Of a stretch of DNA of 10,260 nt, positions 1-10,260 are shown in pieces. The stretch comes from a virus, in the UHGV virus genome UHGV-0142988; one strand, 5' to 3'. A model generated the notes under the pieces. It was not told the origin of the DNA, ran no database searches, and saw only the letters and a list, made by a program, of their open reading frames with translations. The position numbers and the translations under genes are program-made. The first letter of the stretch is position 1, and every line of letters starts with the position of its first letter.

Positions 1-38
1 CGAGTCTCGTGGGCTTCGGAGATGTGTATAAGAGACAG
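1..38. other. Sequencing adapter remnant (Nextera/Tn5 mosaic end, one-base indel) at contig start; artefact
   Basis: Positions 20-38 read AGATGTGTATAAGAGACAG, the 19-bp Tn5 mosaic end, preceded by GTCTCGTGGGCT(T)CGG, the Nextera read-2 adapter with one extra T. Confidence 0.85.
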
Positions 39-42
39 CTCA

Positions 43-238
43 TGTCCGCCCCACACGGACACTTCCCCAAATTTGTCCGTCCACCACGGACACTCACAGA
101 CACAGATGTCCTCTGTACGCACACAACGGACAAAATAATAGTGCAATATACACAACTATTACTGGAAATCAATCCAATAATTGTGCACATTGCACTATAA
201 AAATCAGTTATTTTAGAACATTATGCTCTTGTGTCCGT
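43..238. repeat. Terminal-region short repeats TGTCCG(T)/ACGGACA: two hairpin-capable inverted pairs (~43-61, ~74-92) plus solo copies (~126-132, ~232-238)
   Basis: Six copies of the 6-7-mer within ~200 bp directly after the adapter; the first two pairs are inverted repeats with 5-7 nt spacers. Confidence 0.6.
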
Positions 239-269
239 GTGTGAGAGACACATACAGGGGTGATGTTTT

Positions 270-283
270 CGAACATGTGTTCT
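270..283. promoter_or_regulatory. Candidate LexA/DinR SOS box (Cheo-box-like, cGAAC-atgt-GTTCt), with an overlapping GTTC-tat-GAAC
   Basis: GAAC-N4-GTTC with 5' flanking C, ~17 bp upstream of the predicted -35. This is the only such site I found in the window. Confidence 0.5.
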
Positions 284-299
284 ATGAACAATATGGACT

Positions 300-328
300 T
301 TGAATAAATCTAAATAATTACATATAAT
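300..328 (+). promoter_or_regulatory. Candidate sigma-A-type promoter for the rightward early operon
   Basis: TTGAAT (-35, ~300-305), 17-bp spacer, TATAAT (-10, ~323-328); ~30 bp upstream of a GAGGTG RBS and the ATG at 359. Confidence 0.5.
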
Positions 329-358
329 AATGTTATCAAATGAAAGAGAGGTGAACAG

Positions 359-508
359 ATGACAGATTACGAAGAAAGCTACAAAAATTATCTTGCATGG
401 CTCACTCCACGTGAGCTATTGCATGAATACAAGATCATGCGTTTACCGTGGCGTTATCGGGAACGAAAATGGATCAAAGAAGAAATAGAAAGTAGGTGTG
501 TGTACTAA
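359..508 (+). CDS. Small hypothetical protein (49 aa; MTDYEESYKNYLAWL...), below the ORF-track length cutoff
   Basis: ATG with GAGGTG RBS ~7 nt upstream; first ORF after the promoter; read by eye. Confidence 0.35.
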   Translation: MTDYEESYKNYLAWLTPRELLHEYKIMRLPWRYRERKWIKEEIESRCVY

Positions 509-602
509 TGTTGGATGCTATATTGTGGTTTGGTTTTGGTGCTATATTAATTTTTCCGTATGGAGTTTGGTGTGGGGCAAAATGGTCAGGAGGATATAAG
601 AA

Positions 603-806
603 ATGAAAAATTATTGTGATATATGTTTTACATGTAATGATGCTGAAGTTTGTCATTCATGTAGCCAGCCAGAGATTTGTTCCGAATTTAAAAAGTGTTT
701 TGATCATAAGCCTTATATAATGTGGGAGAAAATGACAAGTTTTGACGATATCATGAGATGTGTTGAGAAATGGAGGGTGTACAATGAGCAGACCGTTAAA
801 CAGTAA
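603..806 (+). CDS. Small Cys-rich protein (67 aa), possible zinc-ribbon-like
   Basis: AGGAGG RBS ~7 nt upstream of the ATG; CxxCxxC...CxxC spacing in the N-terminal 32 residues (seven Cys). Confidence 0.55.
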   Translation: MKNYCDICFTCNDAEVCHSCSQPEICSEFKKCFDHKPYIMWEKMTSFDDIMRCVEKWRVYNEQTVKQ

Positions 807-1041
807 GAAGTCATGGTATAAGGTATATATCAAAGAATTAAATACACCGAATATCATTAAAAGTCAGTGTAAATATAAATGCGATTATCTATTAGTAAAG
901 GCATACACAGGATCAGTCGCAATGGCAATCGTGCAGGACTACGTTGTCGAGTTTGAAGAAAATTTCCGTCCTGTATACTACAACAAATTGGAGGGAGGTG
1001 TTCCTATTGACAACAAAAAAGTCTTATTTGAAGAAGAGTAA
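784..1041 (+). CDS. Hypothetical protein (86 aa from internal ATG; track ORF begins at 760)
   Basis: GGAGGG RBS ~6 nt upstream of the ATG at 784; overlaps the 3' end of the previous gene; protein-like composition. Confidence 0.45.
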   Translation: MSRPLNSKKSWYKVYIKELNTPNIIKSQCKYKCDYLLVKAYTGSVAMAIVQDYVVEFEENFRPVYYNKLEGGVPIDNKKVLFEEE

Positions 1042-1648
1042 ACCACAAGGTCTTATAAGAACAAAAGACGATTATACGCCGCTTGCTCTCGAGTTAACAT
1101 GGGATATGAAAGACGTTAGAAAAGAGTATTCACGGTTAAGATCAATCTGGCGTAAACGTTATGAAAGATTACTGAAATCTGACTATAAAGATATCAACCT
1201 TGTAACGGATCGACCGATCCAACGTTACAAGCAGTTGAAAGATATAACAAGTGATAGAGAACTCTATCACTTGTTATCTGAACTATCAACTATTATAGGA
1301 TCAGATCGAACTACAGTAACAGGATTGAAAAAACGGGAAAAAGAGCAGATGGAACACATCAACGATGTGTATGGAACAGAGTTAAAAACGCACGAAGATT
1401 TATTAAATTTTGGACGTTTCATGGAACAGTTACGGGATTTTGCATCTGATAGAATATACGATTCTGATTTTGCAGTTGATTTATATTCTGATGGTGAAAA
1501 GCTGAGTACGGGCAAAATGTTAGAGCTATACAAGGAATTTTTGAAAACTGGATCACGTAACATCGAAAAATTGAAATCTGGCATAGCAAAGAAAGAAAAA
1601 GCGAAACGTCAGAAGAGGAAAGCAGGCAAACGTAAACGTAGGAGGTAA
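1007..1648 (+). CDS. Candidate terminal protein (~213 aa if started at TTG 1007; track ORF 944..1648)
   Basis: Directly upstream of, and translationally coupled to, the protein-primed DNA polymerase (its stop lies in the polymerase RBS). Strongly basic C-terminal tail KKEKAKRQKRKAGKRKRRR. GGAGGGAGGTG lies ~6 nt upstream of TTG 1007. Function is from synteny, not homology. Confidence 0.45.
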   Translation: MTTKKSYLKKSKPQGLIRTKDDYTPLALELTWDMKDVRKEYSRLRSIWRKRYERLLKSDYKDINLVTDRPIQRYKQLKDITSDRELYHLLSELSTIIGSDRTTVTGLKKREKEQMEHINDVYGTELKTHEDLLNFGRFMEQLRDFASDRIYDSDFAVDLYSDGEKLSTGKMLELYKEFLKTGSRNIEKLKSGIAKKEKAKRQKRKAGKRKRRR

Positions 1649-1651
1649 CAC

Positions 1652-3733
1652 ATGGAAAATCTGTATACTATTGACACATATAATTATAATAGAATACGGA
1701 ATTTACCATGTTTACATGATACTAGGTCTAACAAAGGAAGTAAAAAAGCAAAAGGTTATAAAAATTGTCTGTGTGCTTTCGATATCGAAACAACTAGATT
1801 GGAAGATATCGAGCAGTCAATAATGTATATCTGGCAGTTTTCAATTCTTTTTCTTGATGATTTACATGTTGATACGATAATTGGAAGAACGTGGACAGAA
1901 TTTGAGTTATTTCTTGATAATCTTATGAATGACGATAACTATGCATATTATATGATTTTTGTTCATAATCTTTCATATGAATTTCAGTTTTTGCGTGGTA
2001 TATATACATTTTCACCGGATGAAGTTTTTGCCATAAAATCACGTAGAATATTGAAATGTGAAATGTTAGAGCGTTTCGAGTTTCGTTGCTCATATTTACA
2101 AACTAATATGTCACTAAATACGTTTACCTCAAAAATGAAAGTAAAACATCAGAAATTATCTGGTGAAAAATTCGATTATAGTAAAAAGCGTTTTCCATGG
2201 ACAGAACTAACCGATTATGAAATAAAGTATAGTACATACGACACGATTGGACTAGTTGAAGCAATGTATAAACGTATGATACTGTCAAATGACAATCTAT
2301 ATACACTACCATTAACGTCAACCGGTTATGTACGTCGTGAAACGAAAAAAGCCATGTATGGTTGGTCACGAAAACACAAGGATATATTTCCCACTATAGA
2401 TGTTTTCGATCTGCTAGAGGAGGCGTTTCGGGGCGGAGATACTCACGCTAACCGTTATTACTCAGGAACCGTGATACGTGCATATGGTAAAAATATTCTA
2501 GGAATCGGTTCATATGATAGGTCATCCTCTTATCCTGACGTTGTGTTGAATTGTGTTTTCCCGATGACACGTTTTGTATATATCGGATCAATAGATGAAT
2601 CTGATATAGATAAGAAACTGGATAGAGGAAAAGCACTCTTATTCCGATGTAAAATAACAGGTATTGAGCAGATCGACAAGTATTACGGATCGCCCTATAT
2701 TTCATATTCAAAATGTAGAAATGTTTCATGTGAAACACTTGACAATGGGCGTATTTTAAGTGCTGACTATATTGAAATAACGCTCACTGATATTGATTAT
2801 GAGATAATGAAACGTGAGTACAAATGGAAACATTTTGAAATAACAGAGTGTTATGAGAGTAAATACGGAGCATTGCCAGAACCGTTGAAAGACATTTTCC
2901 GTAAATATTATACTGACAAAACAGAGTTAAAAGGAATCGTGGAACAGGAACTTTTCTACAACTTGCAAAAGGCTTTGCTTAACGCTGGCTATGGAATGAT
3001 GGTTCAATCACCCGTGAAACAGTCGTTAATATTTACAGAATCGGCAGAAAACATATATACAGTTGATGAAAATGTTTCACGTGAAACATTACTCACTAAA
3101 TATAACAGAACAGCTTTCTTGCCTTATCAATGGGGTGTTTGGGTAACAGCATGGGCACGCCAGCGATTGAAAGAGGGTATAAACATAGTTGGAGATCGTT
3201 ACGTTTACAGCGATACGGATTCAGTAAAATATATAAAAGTAAGAGGTGATAATATTGACGAGTTATTTGATAGATACAATTCTGAGAGAAAAGAGCAAAG
3301 TATCTCCAATTCCGCATACGCAACAGACCGTTATGGCGTTAAACATTATATGGGGGTGTATGAATTCGAGGATACGTATACTGAATTCTCCACCATTGGT
3401 ACAAAAAAATATGTCTATAGAACTAAAGATGGAAAACTACACGCAACAATCGCAGGAGTTAATAAAAAGCTTGCACCGGATGAGTTGGAAGAACATGGAG
3501 GAATTGAAGCTTTCAAAACTGGATTTACCTTTTTACGATCAGGAGGAACTGAAAGCGTGTACAATGACGTTCCTTATGGGGATTACACCGTGGAAAATCA
3601 TGTTTTAAAAATTACACAAAATGTAGTTATCAGACCGTCAACTTACACAATAGGAATAACAGATGAGTACCGTAGGATTTTGGCAGACGCAAGAACATTA
3701 AAAGAATTTAAATATACTTTTGACAAAAATTAA
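1652..3733 (+). CDS. Protein-primed family-B DNA polymerase (693 aa)
   Basis: AGGAGG RBS. Exo I FDIETT, Exo II HNLSYEF, Exo III YSTYDTIGLVEAM, motif A YDRSSSYP (Dx2SLYP-like), motif B KALLNAGYG (Kx3NSxYG-like), motif C YSDTDS, KxY in TIGTKKYVY. Confidence 0.95.
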   Translation: MENLYTIDTYNYNRIRNLPCLHDTRSNKGSKKAKGYKNCLCAFDIETTRLEDIEQSIMYIWQFSILFLDDLHVDTIIGRTWTEFELFLDNLMNDDNYAYYMIFVHNLSYEFQFLRGIYTFSPDEVFAIKSRRILKCEMLERFEFRCSYLQTNMSLNTFTSKMKVKHQKLSGEKFDYSKKRFPWTELTDYEIKYSTYDTIGLVEAMYKRMILSNDNLYTLPLTSTGYVRRETKKAMYGWSRKHKDIFPTIDVFDLLEEAFRGGDTHANRYYSGTVIRAYGKNILGIGSYDRSSSYPDVVLNCVFPMTRFVYIGSIDESDIDKKLDRGKALLFRCKITGIEQIDKYYGSPYISYSKCRNVSCETLDNGRILSADYIEITLTDIDYEIMKREYKWKHFEITECYESKYGALPEPLKDIFRKYYTDKTELKGIVEQELFYNLQKALLNAGYGMMVQSPVKQSLIFTESAENIYTVDENVSRETLLTKYNRTAFLPYQWGVWVTAWARQRLKEGINIVGDRYVYSDTDSVKYIKVRGDNIDELFDRYNSERKEQSISNSAYATDRYGVKHYMGVYEFEDTYTEFSTIGTKKYVYRTKDGKLHATIAGVNKKLAPDELEEHGGIEAFKTGFTFLRSGGTESVYNDVPYGDYTVENHVLKITQNVVIRPSTYTIGITDEYRRILADARTLKEFKYTFDKN

Positions 3734-3781
3734 CATATGTGTTATAATTCATGTAAAGAGATATTACAAGGAGGTGATAAT

Positions 3782-4036
3782 ATGAAAATTACACGTTCAT
3801 TAACAGTTAACAAGATCAACGTTATCTGCTACGATCCTGAGAATAAGTGTGAGTTTGTACAGGAAGTTGGTTTGATCGGAAATCTTACTGATGAGCAGAT
3901 CAGCAAAGAGATTAAAAAAAGAAATTTTGGAATTGTTATTGATTGGGAAAGAACATCAGAAGAAACAAAATTATACGGAATGGATGCCGAAGTGTTTTTA
4001 AAAAATGCAATCATTATTAAAGAAAAGGAGAACTAA
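3782..4036 (+). CDS. Hypothetical small protein (84 aa from internal ATG)
   Basis: AGGAGGTG RBS ~6 nt upstream of the ATG at 3782; sits between polymerase and ATPase genes. Confidence 0.55.
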   Translation: MKITRSLTVNKINVICYDPENKCEFVQEVGLIGNLTDEQISKEIKKRNFGIVIDWERTSEETKLYGMDAEVFLKNAIIIKEKEN

Positions 4037-4039
4037 ATC

Positions 4040-4474
4040 ATGGCAAAGAATTATACTATCATTAAATCATCGGGAAACCTTGATACCTATTCAGAATATG
4101 AACTCATCGAGTCACCTGCAATCGTTTCACTTAAAAACGTAGAAAACAAAGGACTTATCTGTGTTGGAGCGTGGGTGAAATATCTTACCACCGACAATAT
4201 CGGAAATGAAATAACCTGCATTTCAGTGCAGGACGCAAACACAGGAGAGGTATTCTCAGGTCAGTCAGCACCTTTCAGAGAAACATTCGAGGCTGTTACC
4301 GATCGTATTTCTGACATGGACGAAGCTCCAGAAATGTTTTTCATCGAGGTTCTTCATAGACAGTCAAAGTCAGGTCGTGATTATCTTATGTGCGCACTTG
4401 TTTCCCCGGATCGTGCTTTTGCCCGCATGGGATATACTGAAAAGAACATTCCTATGCCAGAGCCCCAGAAATAA
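4040..4474 (+). CDS. Hypothetical protein (144 aa); an SSB or DNA-binding role is only a positional guess
   Basis: AAGGAGA RBS before the ATG at 4040; tightly packed with neighbours; no motif recognised. Confidence 0.6.
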   Translation: MAKNYTIIKSSGNLDTYSEYELIESPAIVSLKNVENKGLICVGAWVKYLTTDNIGNEITCISVQDANTGEVFSGQSAPFRETFEAVTDRISDMDEAPEMFFIEVLHRQSKSGRDYLMCALVSPDRAFARMGYTEKNIPMPEPQK

Positions 4475-4475
4475 T

Positions 4476-5525
4476 ATGTTATCGTTATACGAAAATAGCG
4501 GGTATCTATCGATACCCGCTATTTTAGGATATGGACAAAAGTTTAATTACATCTGGGGTGGCCGTGGTACGGGGAAAACTTACGGTGCTCTTAAATACTG
4601 TATTGAACATAAAAAAATTTTTGCTTATATGCGATCATTGCAAACACAAATTGATATGATTAAAATTCCAGAACTTTCACCTTTTAAAAAATTAAATCGT
4701 GATTTAGGATGGTCAATATATCCGAAAAGTGTCGGGAAAAATATTGCTGTGTATTATAATGCAGAAATTGACGAAAATGGTAAAATAAAATATACTGGAG
4801 ATATACTCGGTTATTCCATAGCGTTAAATACATTTGCCAATTTACGAGGTTTTGATGCATCAGACGTTGAGATAGGAATATATGATGAATTTATCCCCGA
4901 AAAACGTGAACGCAAAGTTGAAAATGCTGGATATGCTTTTAAAAACGCATATGAAACAATGAATCGAAACCGTGAACTTGATGGAATTAATCCGATACAG
5001 TTTTTATTGTTTTCTAATTCTGAAAGTTTATCATGTGATATGTTTATAGAGAATAATTTAATGGAAAAAGTATCGAGCATGGATATTAATAAACAATCTA
5101 TGTCTATTATACGTGATAGAGGTATTGGACTTTTTAACTTGTATGATTCGCCGATTTCTGAAAAGAAAAAAGACACAGCTCTGTATAAAATGTCTGGATC
5201 AGATTCAGCATTTAACAGGATGGCACTAGGAAATGAATTTTATTCCGCTGATTATTCAGGAATTAGAAGCATGAACATTAAAGAACTGATACCACTATGT
5301 AAAATGGACGCTATTACAATATATCAGCACAAGAGAAAAGACTTAATATATGTAACACGGCACAGCTCTGGTACACCGCCAGAGTATTCCAATACAGATA
5401 AGGATGTAAAAGCTTTCAGACGAGATTTTATTTATTTATGGGATATGTATTTATCAAACAAGGTGCTGTTTGAGGATATCACAAGCAAGTCCCTATTTGA
5501 GATTTATTTTAAAAATAAATATTGA
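4476..5525 (+). CDS. P-loop ATPase, phi29 gp16-like DNA encapsidation ATPase candidate (349 aa from the ATG right after the upstream stop)
   Basis: Walker A GGRGTGKT near the N-terminus and Walker B EIGIYDEF about 110 residues later. Size and motif spacing fit phage packaging ATPases of the ASCE/FtsK-HerA class. Confidence 0.75.
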   Translation: MLSLYENSGYLSIPAILGYGQKFNYIWGGRGTGKTYGALKYCIEHKKIFAYMRSLQTQIDMIKIPELSPFKKLNRDLGWSIYPKSVGKNIAVYYNAEIDENGKIKYTGDILGYSIALNTFANLRGFDASDVEIGIYDEFIPEKRERKVENAGYAFKNAYETMNRNRELDGINPIQFLLFSNSESLSCDMFIENNLMEKVSSMDINKQSMSIIRDRGIGLFNLYDSPISEKKKDTALYKMSGSDSAFNRMALGNEFYSADYSGIRSMNIKELIPLCKMDAITIYQHKRKDLIYVTRHSSGTPPEYSNTDKDVKAFRRDFIYLWDMYLSNKVLFEDITSKSLFEIYFKNKY

Positions 5526-5671
5526 TTTTGTGTTTTATATCTGATATTATCTTTAATAGAAAGACAAGTGTTCGTGGCACACGTACAACACGTCGGGAGC
5601 GTGGGATCATAAGAATCCAATGTGCATGAGCATGTACAGCTCAAGAATTTGTAACACTTAATCTTTCATCA

Positions 5672-5708
5672 CATATGCAGAGTGTCAAAGCCTGCATATG
5701 TTTTGTTT
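5672..5708 (+). terminator. Candidate intrinsic terminator after the ATPase operon
   Basis: 9-bp stem CATATGCAG / CTGCATATG with an 11-nt loop, followed by TTTTGTTT. Confidence 0.55.
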
Positions 5709-5754
5709 CACGTGAAACATTTATCACCTTTCTTTAATGTTTCACGTGAAACAT
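5704..5754. promoter_or_regulatory. Tandem palindromic operator-like sites: TGTTTCACGTGAAACA (~5704-5719) and ATGTTTCACGTGAAACAT (~5737-5754)
   Basis: Two perfect 16-18-bp palindromes 33 bp apart, directly upstream of a TATAAT-like element (~5774-5779) and the RBS of the gene at 5791. Confidence 0.6.
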
Positions 5755-5790
5755 GTTATATGTTGTGCTAATATATAATGGAGGTGAAAT

Positions 5791-5988
5791 ATGGACGTTA
5801 ACTCATTATCAACTCTTATCAGTAACATTGGTGTGCCTTGCGCCTGCCTTATTGCGACTTTCTATCTTTGGCAGAAAGAAACGGATTCTCACAAAGAAGA
5901 AATGAAACGCATGACAGACGCACTCAACAACAACACTCAGGCACTTACAAAACTCACAGAACATATCACAGGAAGTGAAAAAAAATGA
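5791..5988 (+). CDS. Small single-pass membrane protein, holin-like (65 aa)
   Basis: GGAGGTG RBS; one hydrophobic segment (LSTLISNIGVPCACLIATFYLW) then a charged C-terminal tail; ATGA overlap with the next gene. Confidence 0.55.
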   Translation: MDVNSLSTLISNIGVPCACLIATFYLWQKETDSHKEEMKRMTDALNNNTQALTKLTEHITGSEKK

Positions 5989-6230
5989 CGATTAACTACA
6001 ACAAAAATATCAGAGGTGTGTATATCGTCGCAACGAACACAGGGCCTCTGATGGTCAGGGCAGAGCCTAGTACAGACGGAACAGTTATCGCAGAAATGCC
6101 GAAAAACACAAAATGCATCTGTCTAGGATGCTATTCTGGAAACTGGTATGCAGTCATTTACGAACATGACAGTATCATTTCCACCGGCTTTTCTCACAAA
6201 AATTATCTCAGGAGGGATTATAAGATATGA
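5985..6230 (+). CDS. Stand-alone SH3b-like cell-wall-binding domain protein (81 aa)
   Basis: Pattern GVYIVATNTGPLMVRAEPSTDGTVIAEMPKNTKCICLG...GNWYAVIYEH...GFSHKNYLRR resembles bacterial SH3 domains; no catalytic domain attached. Confidence 0.6.
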   Translation: MTINYNKNIRGVYIVATNTGPLMVRAEPSTDGTVIAEMPKNTKCICLGCYSGNWYAVIYEHDSIISTGFSHKNYLRRDYKI

Positions 6231-6421
6231 CGTTAGACAACTTAATTACACTCATTTCAGCAGGATTCACGAAAGAAGAGATCCTCACAATGTCAGGTAC
6301 AGTCACCCAGCGTGCCCCACAGCCACAGCCACAGCCACAGCCACAGCCACAGCCACAGCCACAGCCACAGCCACAAAATACAAAGCAGAAATTGCAAAAT
6401 CAAGATCTAAATACAAATTAA
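6227..6421 (+). CDS. Small protein with a (PQ)10 linker-like repeat (64 aa)
   Basis: ATGA overlap with the upstream gene; contains the in-frame hexamer repeat. Confidence 0.5.
   Translation: MTLDNLITLISAGFTKEEILTMSGTVTQRAPQPQPQPQPQPQPQPQPQPQNTKQKLQNQDLNTN
6317..6375. repeat. Tandem hexanucleotide repeat (CCACAG) x ~9.8
   Basis: Perfect tandem copies read directly in the sequence; encodes PQPQ... in the 6227 ORF frame. Confidence 0.95.
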
Positions 6422-6608
6422 GTGATATTTTAATTCGTGTAGAAAAAAATAGCCTTTATTTTTATTTGCGTAAATGATTCCTTTACTTTTAGCACTAAAA
6501 GCAAGAAAACTATAATTTTATAATTTTCTTTGTTTAAGGCCAGTAATGTTTTCGGCGTTTCAATTGTCCTCGACGAAGGCCGCTTCCGCGACCTTATCTA
6601 GCCCGTGC

Positions 6609-6965
6609 TCATTGAGAACGATCAACTACCATGTATGTTGGTTGACACAGGCTGCCGCGTTCCTGTAACCAGTAGTAATCAAGATCCGCAACACGCATAT
6701 CCAACCCCGAATCCACACGATTGATCTGTAACCGCAGCCCTACAGTATCTTTGTACGATAAACCAGATTTAACATTGTACTTGTACTTAACCCCGCTTTC
6801 TTCTTCAAAAGATTTGAGATAAGGGGGGATTTGCTTCTGAATTTCTTTCAAACAAATAACTTCCCCATCAATTACGAACGGCTTTTCAGTTTTACCGTCA
6901 GGAATAGTAGCCGCAATTGTGGTTAATGGAACTATCGACAACAGTACTGATAATGCTCTTTTCAT
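6609..6965 (-). CDS. Secreted small protein with N-terminal signal peptide (118 aa from the MKRALS start)
   Basis: AAGGGGA RBS before the internal ATG; MKRALSVLLSIVPLTTIAA is signal-peptide-like with no lipobox Cys; ~20 nt downstream of the partner gene. Confidence 0.6.
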   Translation of the reverse strand: MKRALSVLLSIVPLTTIAATIPDGKTEKPFVIDGEVICLKEIQKQIPPYLKSFEEESGVKYKYNVKSGLSYKDTVGLRLQINRVDSGLDMRVADLDYYWLQERGSLCQPTYMVVDRSQ

Positions 6966-6987
6966 CTGTTCTTCCCCTTGAATATAA

Positions 6988-7599
6988 TCATTGTTTAGAA
7001 CAAATTTGTGTAATGGTTGCATTATGGTTAAATTCAACATCAATTACTTTTATAGTATTATCATTAAGTACAGATACAAAATAATTACTTGACGAATTTC
7101 CGTACTTCCTTGAACCATCTGCTGCAATCTTGTTGAATTTAGCAGTATACACACTATCTTTATCGCCGGGAATTGGCATTCGACTGATTAATTCATTATC
7201 GGAAATAGTATAATAAATTAAAATTCCTTTATCTGAATAGTAACCTGAATCGCTTTTTGTTCCCTGTCGAGTTTGTATTATTGCATCGAACTTATCGCAT
7301 TTATAAACATTGGTTTTGGCCTTTTCAGTACTGGTAGACGTTGAAGCCTTTACATCAGTACTTTTATCTTGTGAAACAACCCCGGAACCGATACCTACCG
7401 AAACGACAAAGACAATAAAACTCATGCCTAACGACGTAATCAAAGTACGGAACTTTCCCCGACCTTTATTTCTGGAATAGTTTGAAACTTTCCTGAAAGT
7501 AAGTACTGCAAGGATCACACAAATGATGAAAACGACAAGCCCGGCCATAAAATCCCTCAAACGTTGTGTATCAAAGGCAATCATAGTATCACTTCGCAA
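6988..7599 (-). CDS. Two-TM membrane protein with Ser/Thr-rich ~130-aa extracytoplasmic domain (203 aa, or 198 aa from ATG 7584)
   Basis: Hydrophobic segments AGLVVFIICVILAVLTF and LITSLGMSFIVFVVSVGIGSGVV separated by a basic loop; TTG start in the track with an in-frame ATG 5 codons later. Confidence 0.6.
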   Translation of the reverse strand: MRSDTMIAFDTQRLRDFMAGLVVFIICVILAVLTFRKVSNYSRNKGRGKFRTLITSLGMSFIVFVVSVGIGSGVVSQDKSTDVKASTSTSTEKAKTNVYKCDKFDAIIQTRQGTKSDSGYYSDKGILIYYTISDNELISRMPIPGDKDSVYTAKFNKIAADGSRKYGNSSSNYFVSVLNDNTIKVIDVEFNHNATITQICSKQ

Positions 7600-7601
7600 T
7601 A

Positions 7602-7624
7602 CATTGATCGATTAAAGCGATCAA
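7602..7624. promoter_or_regulatory. Palindrome ATTGATCG-attaaag-CGATCAAT in a divergent control region (7600-7700) that also carries three ATCAAT copies
   Basis: 8-bp inverted repeat just upstream of the leftward gene start and upstream of the rightward leader. Confidence 0.35.
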
Positions 7625-7699
7625 TTTTTGATTTTCGATCGGTTAAATCTATCAATATCTATTAATTGAAGACAAATCAATAGGTAAAAACGATCAGAC

Positions 7700-8100
7700 G
7701 TTGGTCAGTACTTCGGAAACACCAGAAGTATGGTTTGGGTCTGCCGTTTAAACGCCCTCAGAAAACCGCTAAGGTCTCTTTATCGCATATGGCTTGGGAT
7801 TTCAGCCTTTGGCTAAAATCGCTTTCAGGGGGGCTTCTTGTGCGTTTTGTCGGGAACACCATCATGGAGGGGGATAAATCGGATCGAAGTCGCTTCGCTC
7901 TGGTCAGTACTGGAAGGGTTAGCTTATCTGGCGAGGGAAGATGAATTGCCAGGCTTCATGAAGATGGTTGGTTTTGTGGACAAGAAGAACTGCCGTTTTG
8001 AGTATTCCCCCTCACACCCAACAAACCTACCCATTAGCAAGGGGGAGTACTTTCTCGTAGTATACAGAACGAATAAATTCTTTGTATACTTCCGTTTTAT
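7700..8100 (+). ncRNA. Candidate structured 5' leader / cis-regulatory RNA (class unassigned)
   Basis: ~400 nt without a convincing ORF, visibly more GC than flanks. 12-bp stem (~8001-8012 / 8040-8051, one G-U pair) with a C/A-rich 27-nt loop, then an AT-rich hairpin (~8059-8090) plus U-tract just before the downstream start. The 11-mer TGGTCAGTACT occurs twice (~7703, ~7901). Confidence 0.35.
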
Positions 8101-8111
8101 CCTAAAGCGAT

Positions 8112-8801
8112 TTGATTATGGACGAGAATAATAAAGAAGTTATTGAAATAAGACCAGAAGATAAGGACTTTTTCGCAGAATTTATTGATTGTGAAGGTCC
8201 AATTATCCAAGATTCAATTGATCATAAAAAAATCACCCTCGCACTTGATAAAGCCCACGACATAAGAAAGTTTGAAATAGATCTCTATTGGAAGCGTGCT
8301 ACATACTTCTTCGCATTCTTCACTGTAATAACAGCTGCATTTGGTTATTTGTTCACCCATGACAACTATACTTTCTTAGCCCCTGCACTTGCGATCATTG
8401 GTTCTGTTTTTGCTTTATGTTTTTGTTATGTGAATATCGGTAGTAAGTATTGGCAAGAAAACTGGGAGTTTATAATTGATAAAATTGAATATTATGTCAC
8501 AGGAAACCTTTATAAACTTTTCTTCTTCGAAAACCATAGAACCAAACGCCCATCAGTCACTAAGATTAATATATTTCTAAGCAAGCTAATTATAGCTACA
8601 TGGTACGCTTGCTTTATACTTTCCATGCACCAGATATGGAATCAAAGCATGGTATTAAATGTCTCTTATATTATCCTTACCATATATAGCACTGGAACGA
8701 CATTATATTACTGCGATAAAACTGTTGCAGACATATCGAACAATGATAAAGAATCACCACGATTCTTTAGATTCAGAAATCCTAATTACATAAAATCATA
8801 A
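8112..8801 (+). CDS. Multi-pass (about 4 TM) membrane protein with ~60-aa soluble N-terminal domain (229 aa; probable ATG at 8118)
   Basis: Four hydrophobic segments (ATYFFAFFTVITAAFGYLF; FLAPALAIIGSVFALCFCYVNI; INIFLSKLIIATWYACFILSMH; MVLNVSYIILTIYSTGTTLYY); weak RBS. Confidence 0.65.
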   Translation: MIMDENNKEVIEIRPEDKDFFAEFIDCEGPIIQDSIDHKKITLALDKAHDIRKFEIDLYWKRATYFFAFFTVITAAFGYLFTHDNYTFLAPALAIIGSVFALCFCYVNIGSKYWQENWEFIIDKIEYYVTGNLYKLFFFENHRTKRPSVTKINIFLSKLIIATWYACFILSMHQIWNQSMVLNVSYIILTIYSTGTTLYYCDKTVADISNNDKESPRFFRFRNPNYIKS

Positions 8802-8805
8802 ACAT

Positions 8806-8824
8806 GGGGGCATTTGATGCCCCT
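8806..8824 (+). terminator. Candidate terminator hairpin GGGGCAT-ttg-ATGCCCC just after the stop codon
   Basis: Perfect 7-bp GC-rich stem with 3-nt loop; the downstream U-tract is weak on plus and better on the minus strand. Confidence 0.45.
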
Positions 8825-9065
8825 TGTAAATTGATAATCCGACCTAAAAACACTTTGAGTACTTCATTTGTCAGTACTGTTATCTGTTTGAGCGAAAGCG
8901 AGTAACGGCTTTGGCGTGCTTTCGAGTACTGCGAGAAAAACGCAAAGTTACGATCTGATATTTGGTTTTTATAGAGACTAACAAGCAAAGCGAAGTTAGG
9001 CTCTTTAGATACTGAATATCAGTAAGGCTAATACATTCAAAATATCAGGTGAAAGGCAATATTAT

Positions 9066-9194
9066 ATTAAGTTACGGTTATTCACCCCACTGCATAAAAC
9101 AAGAATAACCTACTGATTTTACGGACTTTTATTTGAATAATAATTCACTAATAATCATGATAACCGTATTTCTTAGTTTTAAGTTACGGTTATA
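9066..9194. repeat. 15-bp direct repeat TTAAGTTACGGTTAT (~9067-9081 and ~9179-9193) with an inverted partial copy ATAACCGTA (~9161-9169)
   Basis: Read directly; lies in a convergent intergenic region abutting the 3' end of the gene at 9202. Confidence 0.7.
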
Positions 9195-9201
9195 GGTACG
9201 A

Positions 9202-9669
9202 TTAAACAATGGTTCGTAGATATGCAATCAGATCTTTCGCTGAGGCATTACTGTTCAATAATTCCTGTACTGCGTTCTTCTGTTCGTCGGTTAATGGCTT
9301 ACCAGGCAATGCTTTCTTTAGTCCACATAGCGTACCACCTTCTTCTACAAACTTATCCAATGCTTTAGCAACTGCGGTACAGGCTAATTTGTACTTCTCG
9401 ATAGATGATTCACTTGCTGCAAATTTCTTCATCTGATCTGAACGGGTTAAGGTAAGATAATACTTAACCTGTACTTTTGAAAGCTCTGTAGCGTGTTTGA
9501 CGATGTAGAAGACATCTTTAACAGGTAACTTGTACTTTCCCAATGATTTACACTCTTGAATCGTCTGGTTAATTATTAGAGTTGCTTCTGATGTTAGGCC
9601 ACTGTAAGTAACACGTTTTAGTGCTTCTTCTAACTTTTTATTGTTATAAATCCTTTCTTTTTTTGCCAT
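9202..9669 (-). CDS. Hypothetical protein (155 aa)
   Basis: Clean ORF with ATG start; protein-like composition; no motif recognised. Confidence 0.6.
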   Translation of the reverse strand: MAKKERIYNNKKLEEALKRVTYSGLTSEATLIINQTIQECKSLGKYKLPVKDVFYIVKHATELSKVQVKYYLTLTRSDQMKKFAASESSIEKYKLACTAVAKALDKFVEEGGTLCGLKKALPGKPLTDEQKNAVQELLNSNASAKDLIAYLRTIV

Positions 9670-9759
9670 GATAAATACCCCTATGGAAGATGTTAATTAA
9701 TATTGGCCTGATGTATTCCTAATACTCAGGCTTTTTATTTAAGAAGAAAATGGGTGGGG

Positions 9760-10026
9760 TTATACTCCACGTACCTTCTTGAACCATTCACGATACTCTG
9801 GCACTTTATTTTTGCGTAAATTGCTAATGAAATCTTGATCGCAATTAACTTTAAGTAAATTACAAATCCTAGCACTTGTCATATCACTTAGTAGGATATT
9901 CTCGTACTGAGAGAATGTTAGTTGAATGAAATTAACCTTTTCTTTCTTTCGAACTGATTTGTTCAATGACTTCCTATTAGTCCTGATTTTATTTTTTGTT
10001 TTTATTTTACCGTTTTTCTTTGACAT
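9760..10026 (-). CDS. Small basic protein with possible C-terminal helix-turn-helix (88 aa)
   Basis: GGAGTG RBS before the ATG; very basic N-terminus (KKNGKIKTKNKIRTNRK) followed by an HTH-like segment. Confidence 0.55.
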   Translation of the reverse strand: MSKKNGKIKTKNKIRTNRKSLNKSVRKKEKVNFIQLTFSQYENILLSDMTSARICNLLKVNCDQDFISNLRKNKVPEYREWFKKVRGV

Positions 10027-10260
10027 TTTGTCACTCCTCTAAATTAAAATTCATCTCATGGTTAACCTCCTACGGCTGTTGTTTATGTTCGATTGGCTAT
10101 ATGTTAACGGGCAAAATTGCCCCAATCAAGGAATAGTTGCAACTTTTTCTTGACAAGATCATTACTATTCAAGTCAAAAAATCATATATCATTTAGGCAC
10201 TATCTTTGGGTAATGACTCCAACTTATTGATAGTGTTTTATGTTCAGATAATGCCCGATG

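Follow-up and report, generated by a model that had tools for sequence, protein, structure and literature searches.

What role does a non-coding interval dense in hairpins and repeats play between the ends of two convergent genes? Such a gap occupies positions 8830-9200 of the virus genome UHGV-0142988, a stretch of 10,260 nucleotides (nt) that is referred to here as the window. The convergence described in an initial annotation of this DNA holds: an 8xMP/RipA membrane-protein gene (8112/8118-8801, plus strand; Pfam PF24838, E 3e-28; labeled RipA in RefSeq) faces an open reading frame (ORF) of 155 amino acids (aa) at 9202-9669 on the minus strand, and the gap lies between their stop codons. 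Sequence comparison indicates that the gap is the Escherichia coli copy of a modular cis-acting region belonging to the backbone of a family of small integrative islands of Enterobacterales. The evidence fits best with a dedicated protein-binding cis site of this backbone, which is the most likely role, and we tentatively favor, with somewhat less than even confidence, its use as an iteron-type origin-like site bound by the neighboring protein when a helper phage is present.

The hairpins and repeats of the gap are real and go beyond chance. As RNA, the plus strand of the gap folds at -88.6 kcal/mol, compared with -70.3 +/- 4.4 kcal/mol for shuffled sequences (z = -4.13; equaled by 0/100 shuffles), and the minus strand at z = -2.15. 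The 15-bp direct repeat TTAAGTTACGGTTAT was found as initially described, with two copies (9067-9081 and 9179-9193) that are 100% identical and 112 bp apart and an inverted ATAACCGTA at 9160-9168; we estimate that about 6e-5 exact 15-mer pairs would be expected by chance in 370 bp. Also present is the hairpin formed by AGAGACTAAC (8973-8982) and GTTAGGCTCT (8995-9004), which proved to be the top of a longer imperfect hairpin with 28-nt arms, and so is the palindrome TACTGA-ATA-TCAGTA (9010-9024), which overlaps the right arm of that longer hairpin. A further hairpin, CGAAAGC (8893-8899) with GCTTTCG (8918-8924), exists in the window, but its pairing is not maintained in relatives. The suggestion that the gap echoes an ACGGACA motif at the end of the window does not hold: ACGGACA occurs five times, all at 55-238, and the gap has only TACGGACT (9120-9127), a 6-mer match. 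Moreover, the motif belongs to an unrelated phage-like segment (1-6316) that is joined to the island in no other assembly.

The region is not unconserved filler, a possibility that the initial annotation had left room for; it is kept in approximately 50 loci from several genera, and more strongly than the adjacent protein. In E. coli genomes, blastn recovered the central gap (~8860-9040) at 80-90% identity in islands with unrelated cargo, some of them at other integration sites, and in these relatives a minus-strand gene encoding 155-175 aa is always located upstream of it. The islands run from a tyrosine integrase or large serine recombinase through small genes and often an HNH gene to a gene of 153-175 aa, which is followed by 230-315 bp of non-coding DNA, a conserved core and variable cargo, the distance from the core to the stop codon of the 153-175-aa gene always falling within 230-315 bp. 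Islands of this family, 8-10 kb in size, combine a recombinase of the tyrosine or large serine type with two to four small genes and with cargo that is swappable and mostly of the defense type. We compared its backbone, in which the recombinase and the 155-aa gene are accompanied only by small unclassified genes and, optionally, an HNH gene, with the gene sets of described satellites (AlpA, Pri-Rep or primase, Sid/Psu/Delta, and capsid or TerS genes), and it does not carry the core gene sets of PICI, cfPICI, P4-like, PLE or PICMI elements, the last of which is defined by int, AlpA and primase (PMC10803314). Literature searches, including searches for RipA/8xMP and for islands at ffs, returned no description of the island family, the protein family or the conserved core.

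The core, delimited from alignments of relatives as the first domain of the element (8839-8950, plus strand), contains three AGTACT palindromes (8858-8863, 8873-8878 and 8925-8930), GAGCGAAAGCGAG (8890-8902), a near-invariant TTTCGAGTACTGCGAGAAAAACGCAAAGTT (8920-8949) and repeated GAG...GCGAG motifs. The core sequence is nearly unchanged even between islands in which the adjacent proteins share only 20-30% identity. Its most conserved 20 bases, TTTCGAGTAC-N1-2-GCGAGAAAAA, served as a search pattern and matched 17 IMG/VR loci, 31 genuine metagenome loci and seven genuine genome loci, with four further chance matches; the genome loci belong to Kluyvera, Mangrovibacter, Enterobacter, Serratia, Buttiauxella and Dryocola. 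The core is non-coding, because the indels of relatives are not multiples of three; a coding reading of the small ORFs at 8782-8988 (minus strand) and 8804-8905 (plus strand) was rejected on the 1-3-nt indels that relatives have within the most conserved stretch. No covariation was detected in the core, where conservation is at the level of sequence only. In relatives (loci L029, L030 and L011), conserved non-coding DNA continues 100-200 bp further left of the core and includes the hairpins GGGCT-N5-AGCCC and GGCC-N3-GGCC / GGTAC-N3-GTACC. Cargo stands in place of this left extension in the window (8839) and, independently, in a second E. coli island (locus L002, ~5990), and the two cargo breakpoints lie no more than 5 nt apart, just past the small GGCC-N3-GGCC hairpin.

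The repeats occupy the side of the gap nearest the 155-aa gene. Repeat copy 1 (TTAAGTTACGGTTAT, with the core GTTACGGTTAT; 9067-9081, plus strand) is a putative site for the 155-aa protein, and directly to its left is an AT box, AATATTATATTAAG (9058-9071), which reads AATATTAATATAAG in most relatives. An AT-rich spacer (9082-9158) separates copy 1 from a cluster formed by the inverted copy 2 (9159-9170, minus strand, with ATAACCGTA at 9160-9168) and copy 3 (TTAAGTTACGGTTAT, 9179-9193, plus strand), the latter 8 nt from the stop codon of the 155-aa gene; an 8-bp stem, GGTTATTC / GAATAACC, can be placed at 9076-9083 / 9103-9110. The AT content reaches 78% at 9030-9069 and up to 80% at 9130-9169, compared with 64% for the whole window. 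The direct/inverted layout of the repeats is seen in other clades too.

Based on identity of at least 60%, the proteins of 47 loci fall into seven clusters, between which they are 20-30% identical and can be aligned over their full length. Each of the seven clusters has its own 9-11-bp repeat, and the comparison with relatives that the initial annotation had called for placed these repeats at equal positions across clusters, with a single copy next to the AT box and a further two to five, direct or inverted, reaching as far as the stop codon. The motifs are TGCCGTAAT (18 loci), TGTCGWAATT (seven loci), GTACTAATT (seven loci), TCGCAAGAT (six loci), the window-type GTTACGGTTAT (five loci), GGGCTAAT (two loci) and AGTYACCCT (one locus). 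Two properties by which iteron origins can be recognized are therefore found here, namely at least three short clustered repeats next to a candidate initiator gene (three in the window and three to six in other clades) and a repeat that co-varies with the adjacent protein (seven motifs for seven clusters, with a further motif for the phage homolog described below). The window-type repeat has no other copy in the island, which argues for a dedicated site rather than a dispersed operator.

The 155-aa protein, the putative cognate partner of the repeats, belongs to a small uncharacterized family of 153-175 aa and is predicted by modeling to be all-helical. Its family includes gp460 of the Klebsiella jumbo phage RaK2, which is 29% identical to the window protein over the full length (E 5e-12) and gave the best viral fold match (E 1e-7) and a profile match at E 1.5e-20; relatives of gp460 are found among RaK2 kin in the genus Alcyoneusvirus. 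In RaK2, gp461 and gp460 (64801-65854) form an antisense pair between two gp5-like baseplate hub/lysozyme genes. Directly after the gp460 stop codon, GAATTAGGGACAC occurs in two direct and two inverted copies around T-rich tracts, and the direct copies lie inside a perfect 36-nt repeat, 83 nt apart. The unit of a protein and repeats directly after its stop codon is thus older than the islands and is found in a lytic phage as well. As a separate observation, a predicted protein of 1138 aa (P0068) on a 7.5-kb metagenome contig from ENA has seven separate stretches that match the profile of the 155-aa family; it could be a tandem array or else result from a fusion of reading frames.

Among the functions offered by the initial annotation, a replication-related element fits best, given repeats that co-vary with a DNA-binding-like neighboring protein, adjacent AT-rich tracts and a phage homolog of the same layout. 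A partition or recombination site is not supported, as the att sites of the island lie elsewhere and the element has no second copy in the island. In the origin-like reading, the 155-aa protein would bind the three GTTACGGTTAT repeats, which flank an AT-rich stretch right after the stop codon of its own gene, and the complex would form beside the AT box, the top-strand hairpin and the core. After excision of the island, the island-specific protein would mark its DNA, the AT-rich DNA would open, and the hairpin and core would act single-stranded, either as a displaced strand or as a primer transcript, whereupon helper replication proteins, plausibly those of a RaK2-like jumbo phage, would copy the island for packaging. 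Binding, unwinding, replication and the identity of the helper are all steps that we infer.

We favor an origin-like site because the repeats co-vary with the adjacent protein and have AT-rich tracts adjoining them, because the strand bias of the hairpin (see below) is as expected of an unwound or transcribed intermediate, and because the homologous module of RaK2 lies at an origin-like position in a lytic phage. It is also favored by the location of the repeats immediately 3' of the gene, as in oriV of Salmonella genomic island 1 (SGI1), which lies immediately downstream of rep and has iterons and AT-rich tracts (PMC7433901). SGI1 is likewise an integrative helper-dependent island (the helper being a proposal here), and its iteron array has short direct and inverted repeats immediately downstream of the gene, the product of which is required at that site (PMC7433901). 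Its oriV is active only with the helper present, which is an IncC plasmid in SGI1 and would be a phage here. However, the Rep of SGI1 is a RepA_C-type initiator and its oriV has a DnaA box, whereas our element, which lacks a clear DnaA box, pairs with a helical protein of 155 aa that falls into no class and has a large conserved core as well as a hairpin attached. Similarly, satellites such as PLE, the Vibrio cholerae satellite of phage ICP1, pair their own iteron-binding protein with a helper replisome, the iterons of the PLE non-coding region being bound by RepA and replication requiring the replisome of the helper (PMC7145576). PLE and the islands share a large serine recombinase, a repeat-rich non-coding region and an iteron-binding protein (here putative), although the RepA of PLE is of the RepA_N type, the 3' end of repA is not where the PLE origin lies, and there is no sequence similarity.

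Several observations weigh against an origin. The 155-aa protein has no family in Pfam, NCBIfam, PHROGs or PADLOC, and falls into none of the known initiator families; typical Rep proteins are larger, and searches of the Protein Data Bank (PDB) gave neither a sequence nor a fold match, including none to winged-helix proteins, TerS or Rpp. The islands encode no helicase or primase. In the commonest clade, that of TGCCGTAAT, the repeat spacer is short and not AT-rich. No perfect DnaA box was found, the one-mismatch sites (such as TTATTCACC at 9078) not being conserved. The core and hairpin, which are absent from RaK2, are not explained in detail by the origin model. Finally, the resemblance of the RaK2 module to T4 oriE is circumstantial. 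T4 oriE has 12-nt iterons in the gp5 baseplate-hub region, the same position as that of the antisense gp461-gp460 pair and its repeats in RaK2, but the T4 iterons have no established link to the replication activity of oriE (PMC3016281), and the T4 proteins RepEA and RepEB have 45-50 aa and are unrelated to the 155-aa family. Homology to RepEB, itself of 45 aa, was accordingly rejected.

The putative link to jumbo phages is based on two independent observations, the homologous protein-plus-repeat module and a shared excess of AGTACT. AGTACT is the most over-represented hexamer of the islands, cargo included, at 7.5-fold over base composition. The E. coli island has 23 copies where 3.3 are expected, compared with two and one in its flanks, and the window has 10 copies in 6317-10200 and none in 1-6316. 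In 50 kb of RaK2 (150001-200000), AGTACT occurs 125 times where 16.6 are expected, again a 7.5-fold excess, and GTACTG/CAGTAC and AGTACT are the top hexamers; T4 has 0-1 copies per 10 kb. The sites are spread over coding DNA with no peak near gene starts, and AGTACT was on these grounds rejected as a phage promoter. A SlmA site was also rejected, G being depleted just 5' of AGTACT. The hexamer often appears as CAGTACTG, the window sites extending over 6943-8930, and the att arms of the island have two to three AGTACT each.

Taken further, these observations could mean that the islands are previously undescribed satellites, in Enterobacterales, of RaK2-like jumbo phages (Alcyoneusvirus and its relatives), a proposal that we put forward as possible but rather doubtful. 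The module would have been copied from an origin-binding protein and repeats of the phage, diversified to at least seven specificities and fused to the core and hairpin, and the AGTACT/CAGTACTG signature would make the helper treat the island as phage DNA, replicate it from 8840-9200 and package it. The Pseudomonas islands I23, I44 and I55, which are transduced by jumbo phages, similarly combine an integrase, defense cargo, a lack of transfer genes and a jumbo-phage link (PMC12595487). However, they carry AlpA, YqaJ and Gp2-like genes, are 20-70 kb in size and lie at tmRNA, and the sections of that report consulted here mention no equivalent protein-plus-repeat module (PMC12595487). Unlike the transduction described there for I23, I44 and I55, the jumbo-phage link here consists of homology and an oligonucleotide signature only.

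The long hairpin, the second domain of the element, spans 68 nt (8955-9022, plus strand), with arms at 8955-8982 and 8995-9022 and a loop at 8983-8994, and is maintained by compensatory changes. In eight window-type sequences, pairing is kept in 91.8% of cells, compared with 35-49% for shifted partners, and in three pairs both partners have changed; at 8977/8999, for example, an A.G mismatch is repaired to C-G in one lineage and to A-T in others. Relatives have five sequence types in all at this position, and the four that differ from the window also fold to a long hairpin. Among 41 distinct hairpin sequences, 38 are more stable on the top strand, due to G.U pairs, with mean energies on the top and bottom strands of -25.1 vs -16.7 kcal/mol (type a), -29.0 vs -17.8 (type c), and -18.8 vs -16.4 and -22.5 vs -15.2 in two further types. 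This bias suggests that the plus strand functions in single-stranded form, as RNA or DNA. An integron attC site was considered and rejected, since GACTAAC and GTTAGGC, separated by 12 nt, are located near the hairpin loop rather than at the hairpin base, and no IntI is present; by our estimate, the degenerate attC consensus (RYYYAAC ... GTTRRRY) is expected to have ~0.7 chance matches in a region of this size. A retron was rejected as well, the island backbone having no reverse transcriptase. In E. coli ECZP248 (locus L005, 5288-6000), an IS1 at the equivalent of window position ~9003 has eliminated the cargo and core together with the left hairpin arm; the repeats, 155-aa gene and integrase are still there.

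The preference for the top strand also suits the strongest rival explanation, transcriptional control, possibly with a structured RNA, in which the 155-aa protein would repress, activate or physically block transcription at an AT-box promoter or a convergent-transcription junction, and the core and hairpin would serve as a top-strand RNA (antisense, insulator or processing signal). We consider this a minority possibility. It gains from the much greater stability of the hairpin on the top strand, from pairing kept by compensatory changes and from the stronger fold of the gap on that strand (z of -4.1 vs -2.2). Furthermore, most clades have a -10-like TATAAG/TATACT immediately to the left of repeat copy 1, one promoter-like site was found at 9036-9065, and in RaK2 and the window alike the repeats lie where opposing transcription units meet. 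However, Rfam 15 covariance models gave no match in 8830-9200 at E <= 1 and none in seven fuller loci. Promoter-like sites number eight, compared with 8.8 in shuffled sequences, and no terminator follows the hairpin. The core shows no covariation, and RNAalifold returned a weak consensus of only -3.3 kcal/mol for core and hairpin, partly because hairpin types were misaligned. The cargo gene is co-directional in many relatives, so that the region is not always convergent, and operators would lie at the 3' end of the regulator gene and nowhere else in the island. The small RNA proposed by the initial annotation shares in this balance, the top-strand bias of the hairpin speaking for it and the missing Rfam match, convincing promoter and convincing terminator against it.

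A packaging signal of the cos/pac kind, with the core cut by a helper terminase and the repeats forming a cosB-like array read by an island specificity factor, as with Rpp/cosB of E. coli PICIs, is unlikely. The architecture is equal in that a conserved core stands beside island-specific repeats read by a small island-encoded, DNA-binding-like protein (here putative) (PMC6739421), the size of the protein is within the range of TerS and Rpp, and HNH endonuclease genes, of NUMOD4/HNH_3 or a widespread phage HNH type in relatives, often adjoin the gene of the 155-aa family. These HNH genes are nevertheless homing-endonuclease types and are absent from the window's own island. Whereas cosN/cosQ of PICIs match the helper phage, blastn of the region and core against sequenced phages gave no match to the core, whether at E <= 1e-5 or at the lax threshold of E <= 10, and 17/17 of its IMG/VR matches lie in island contexts. 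Rpp, like TerS, is a winged-helix protein, unlike the 155-aa protein, whose all-helical model agrees with neither. In our view, moreover, a lytic jumbo phage should not need a second pac-specificity factor among its baseplate genes.

Mimicry of an origin of transfer (oriT), in which the core would be nicked by the relaxase of a helper plasmid, the transferred strand would fold at the inverted repeat and an accessory protein would recognize the repeats, is very improbable. A conserved sequence next to a long inverted repeat of strand-specific stability, repeats for a small DNA-binding-like protein and an island without transfer genes of its own would all suit it. However, blastn placed the core in no PLSDB plasmid at E <= 1e-5 and gave three weak chance matches at E <= 10 (a match to a Serratia plasmid proved on inspection to be chance), no relaxase or known accessory family was found, and a lytic jumbo phage, for which conjugation is irrelevant, has the protein-plus-repeat module too. 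Least credible of all is a decaying, functionless remnant, a spacer with repeats and hairpins left from rearrangements, for although the window copy lacks the left extension of relatives and IS1 removed everything left of ~9003 in one E. coli strain, the near-invariance of the core beside proteins only 20-30% identical already contradicts it, as do the compensatory changes of the hairpin and the one-to-one co-variation of protein and repeats.

The setting of the element in the window is as follows. Positions 6317-10200 correspond, at 99.9% identity to approximately 30 E. coli genomes, to an E. coli chromosomal island at ffs. This island is 9.86 kb long (locus L001, 7703-17562) and is bounded by a direct repeat of 22 nt, of which the 3' end of ffs is part; the integrase is at the ffs end. 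On the cargo side of the gap, a GC-rich hairpin, GGGGCATTTGATGCCCC (8807-8823, plus strand), forms a terminator-like site directly after the stop codon of the RipA/8xMP gene; it is missing in relatives carrying other cargo, marks the cargo-side boundary outside the conserved element and is a likely terminator of the cargo gene. Upstream of the RipA/8xMP gene lies a 500-bp non-coding stretch (7600-8111) with AGTACT at 7707, 7906 and 8046. The final 60 bases of the window (10201-10260) are the terminal part of an IS1, and the island is thereby truncated within its section from an 88-aa gene to the integrase. Just past this right end, the island holds an internal inverted attP-like copy (L001 16079-16333; L002 7388-7649) that matches the attL arm, core and attR arm at 100% identity in L001 and 99-100% in L002. 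Because of this copy, perfect inverted repeats of 139 nt enclose the integrase gene, and the integrase itself may be able to invert it.

The remainder of the window is a phage-like segment (1-6316), of which 1313-4050 has 74.5% identity to a 6.8-kb record named 'Bacteriophage sp.'. Bases 1-35 are Nextera adapter sequence, and the 693-aa ORF at 1652-3733 is, on reading, what we take to be a family-B DNA polymerase. Two long near-perfect hairpins in this part (5687-5771 and 138-198) gave spurious microRNA matches in Rfam, and no tRNA or tmRNA was found in the window. The junction at ~6317 (6300-6380) falls in a (CAGCCA)n repeat. To the left of it, the E. coli genomes and one independent metagenome contig continue otherwise, and no other assembly has this join; the contig may therefore be a chimera of the phage-like segment and the E. 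coli island.

Many defense-carrying E. coli islands have no known means of transfer. The results here define a recognizable backbone for such islands, in which a recombinase and a conserved, structured core of 200 nt accompany a small orphan protein and the repeats matched to it, together with a searchable DNA signature, TTTCGAGTAC-N1-2-GCGAGAAAAA. In the literature that we located, satellites or islands moved by jumbo phages have been reported from Pseudomonas only (PMC12595487; PMC12772148). If the region is a replication or mobilization handle, it would explain how these islands spread, would provide a natural set of orthogonal protein/site pairs, and would extend jumbo-phage satellites to Enterobacterales.

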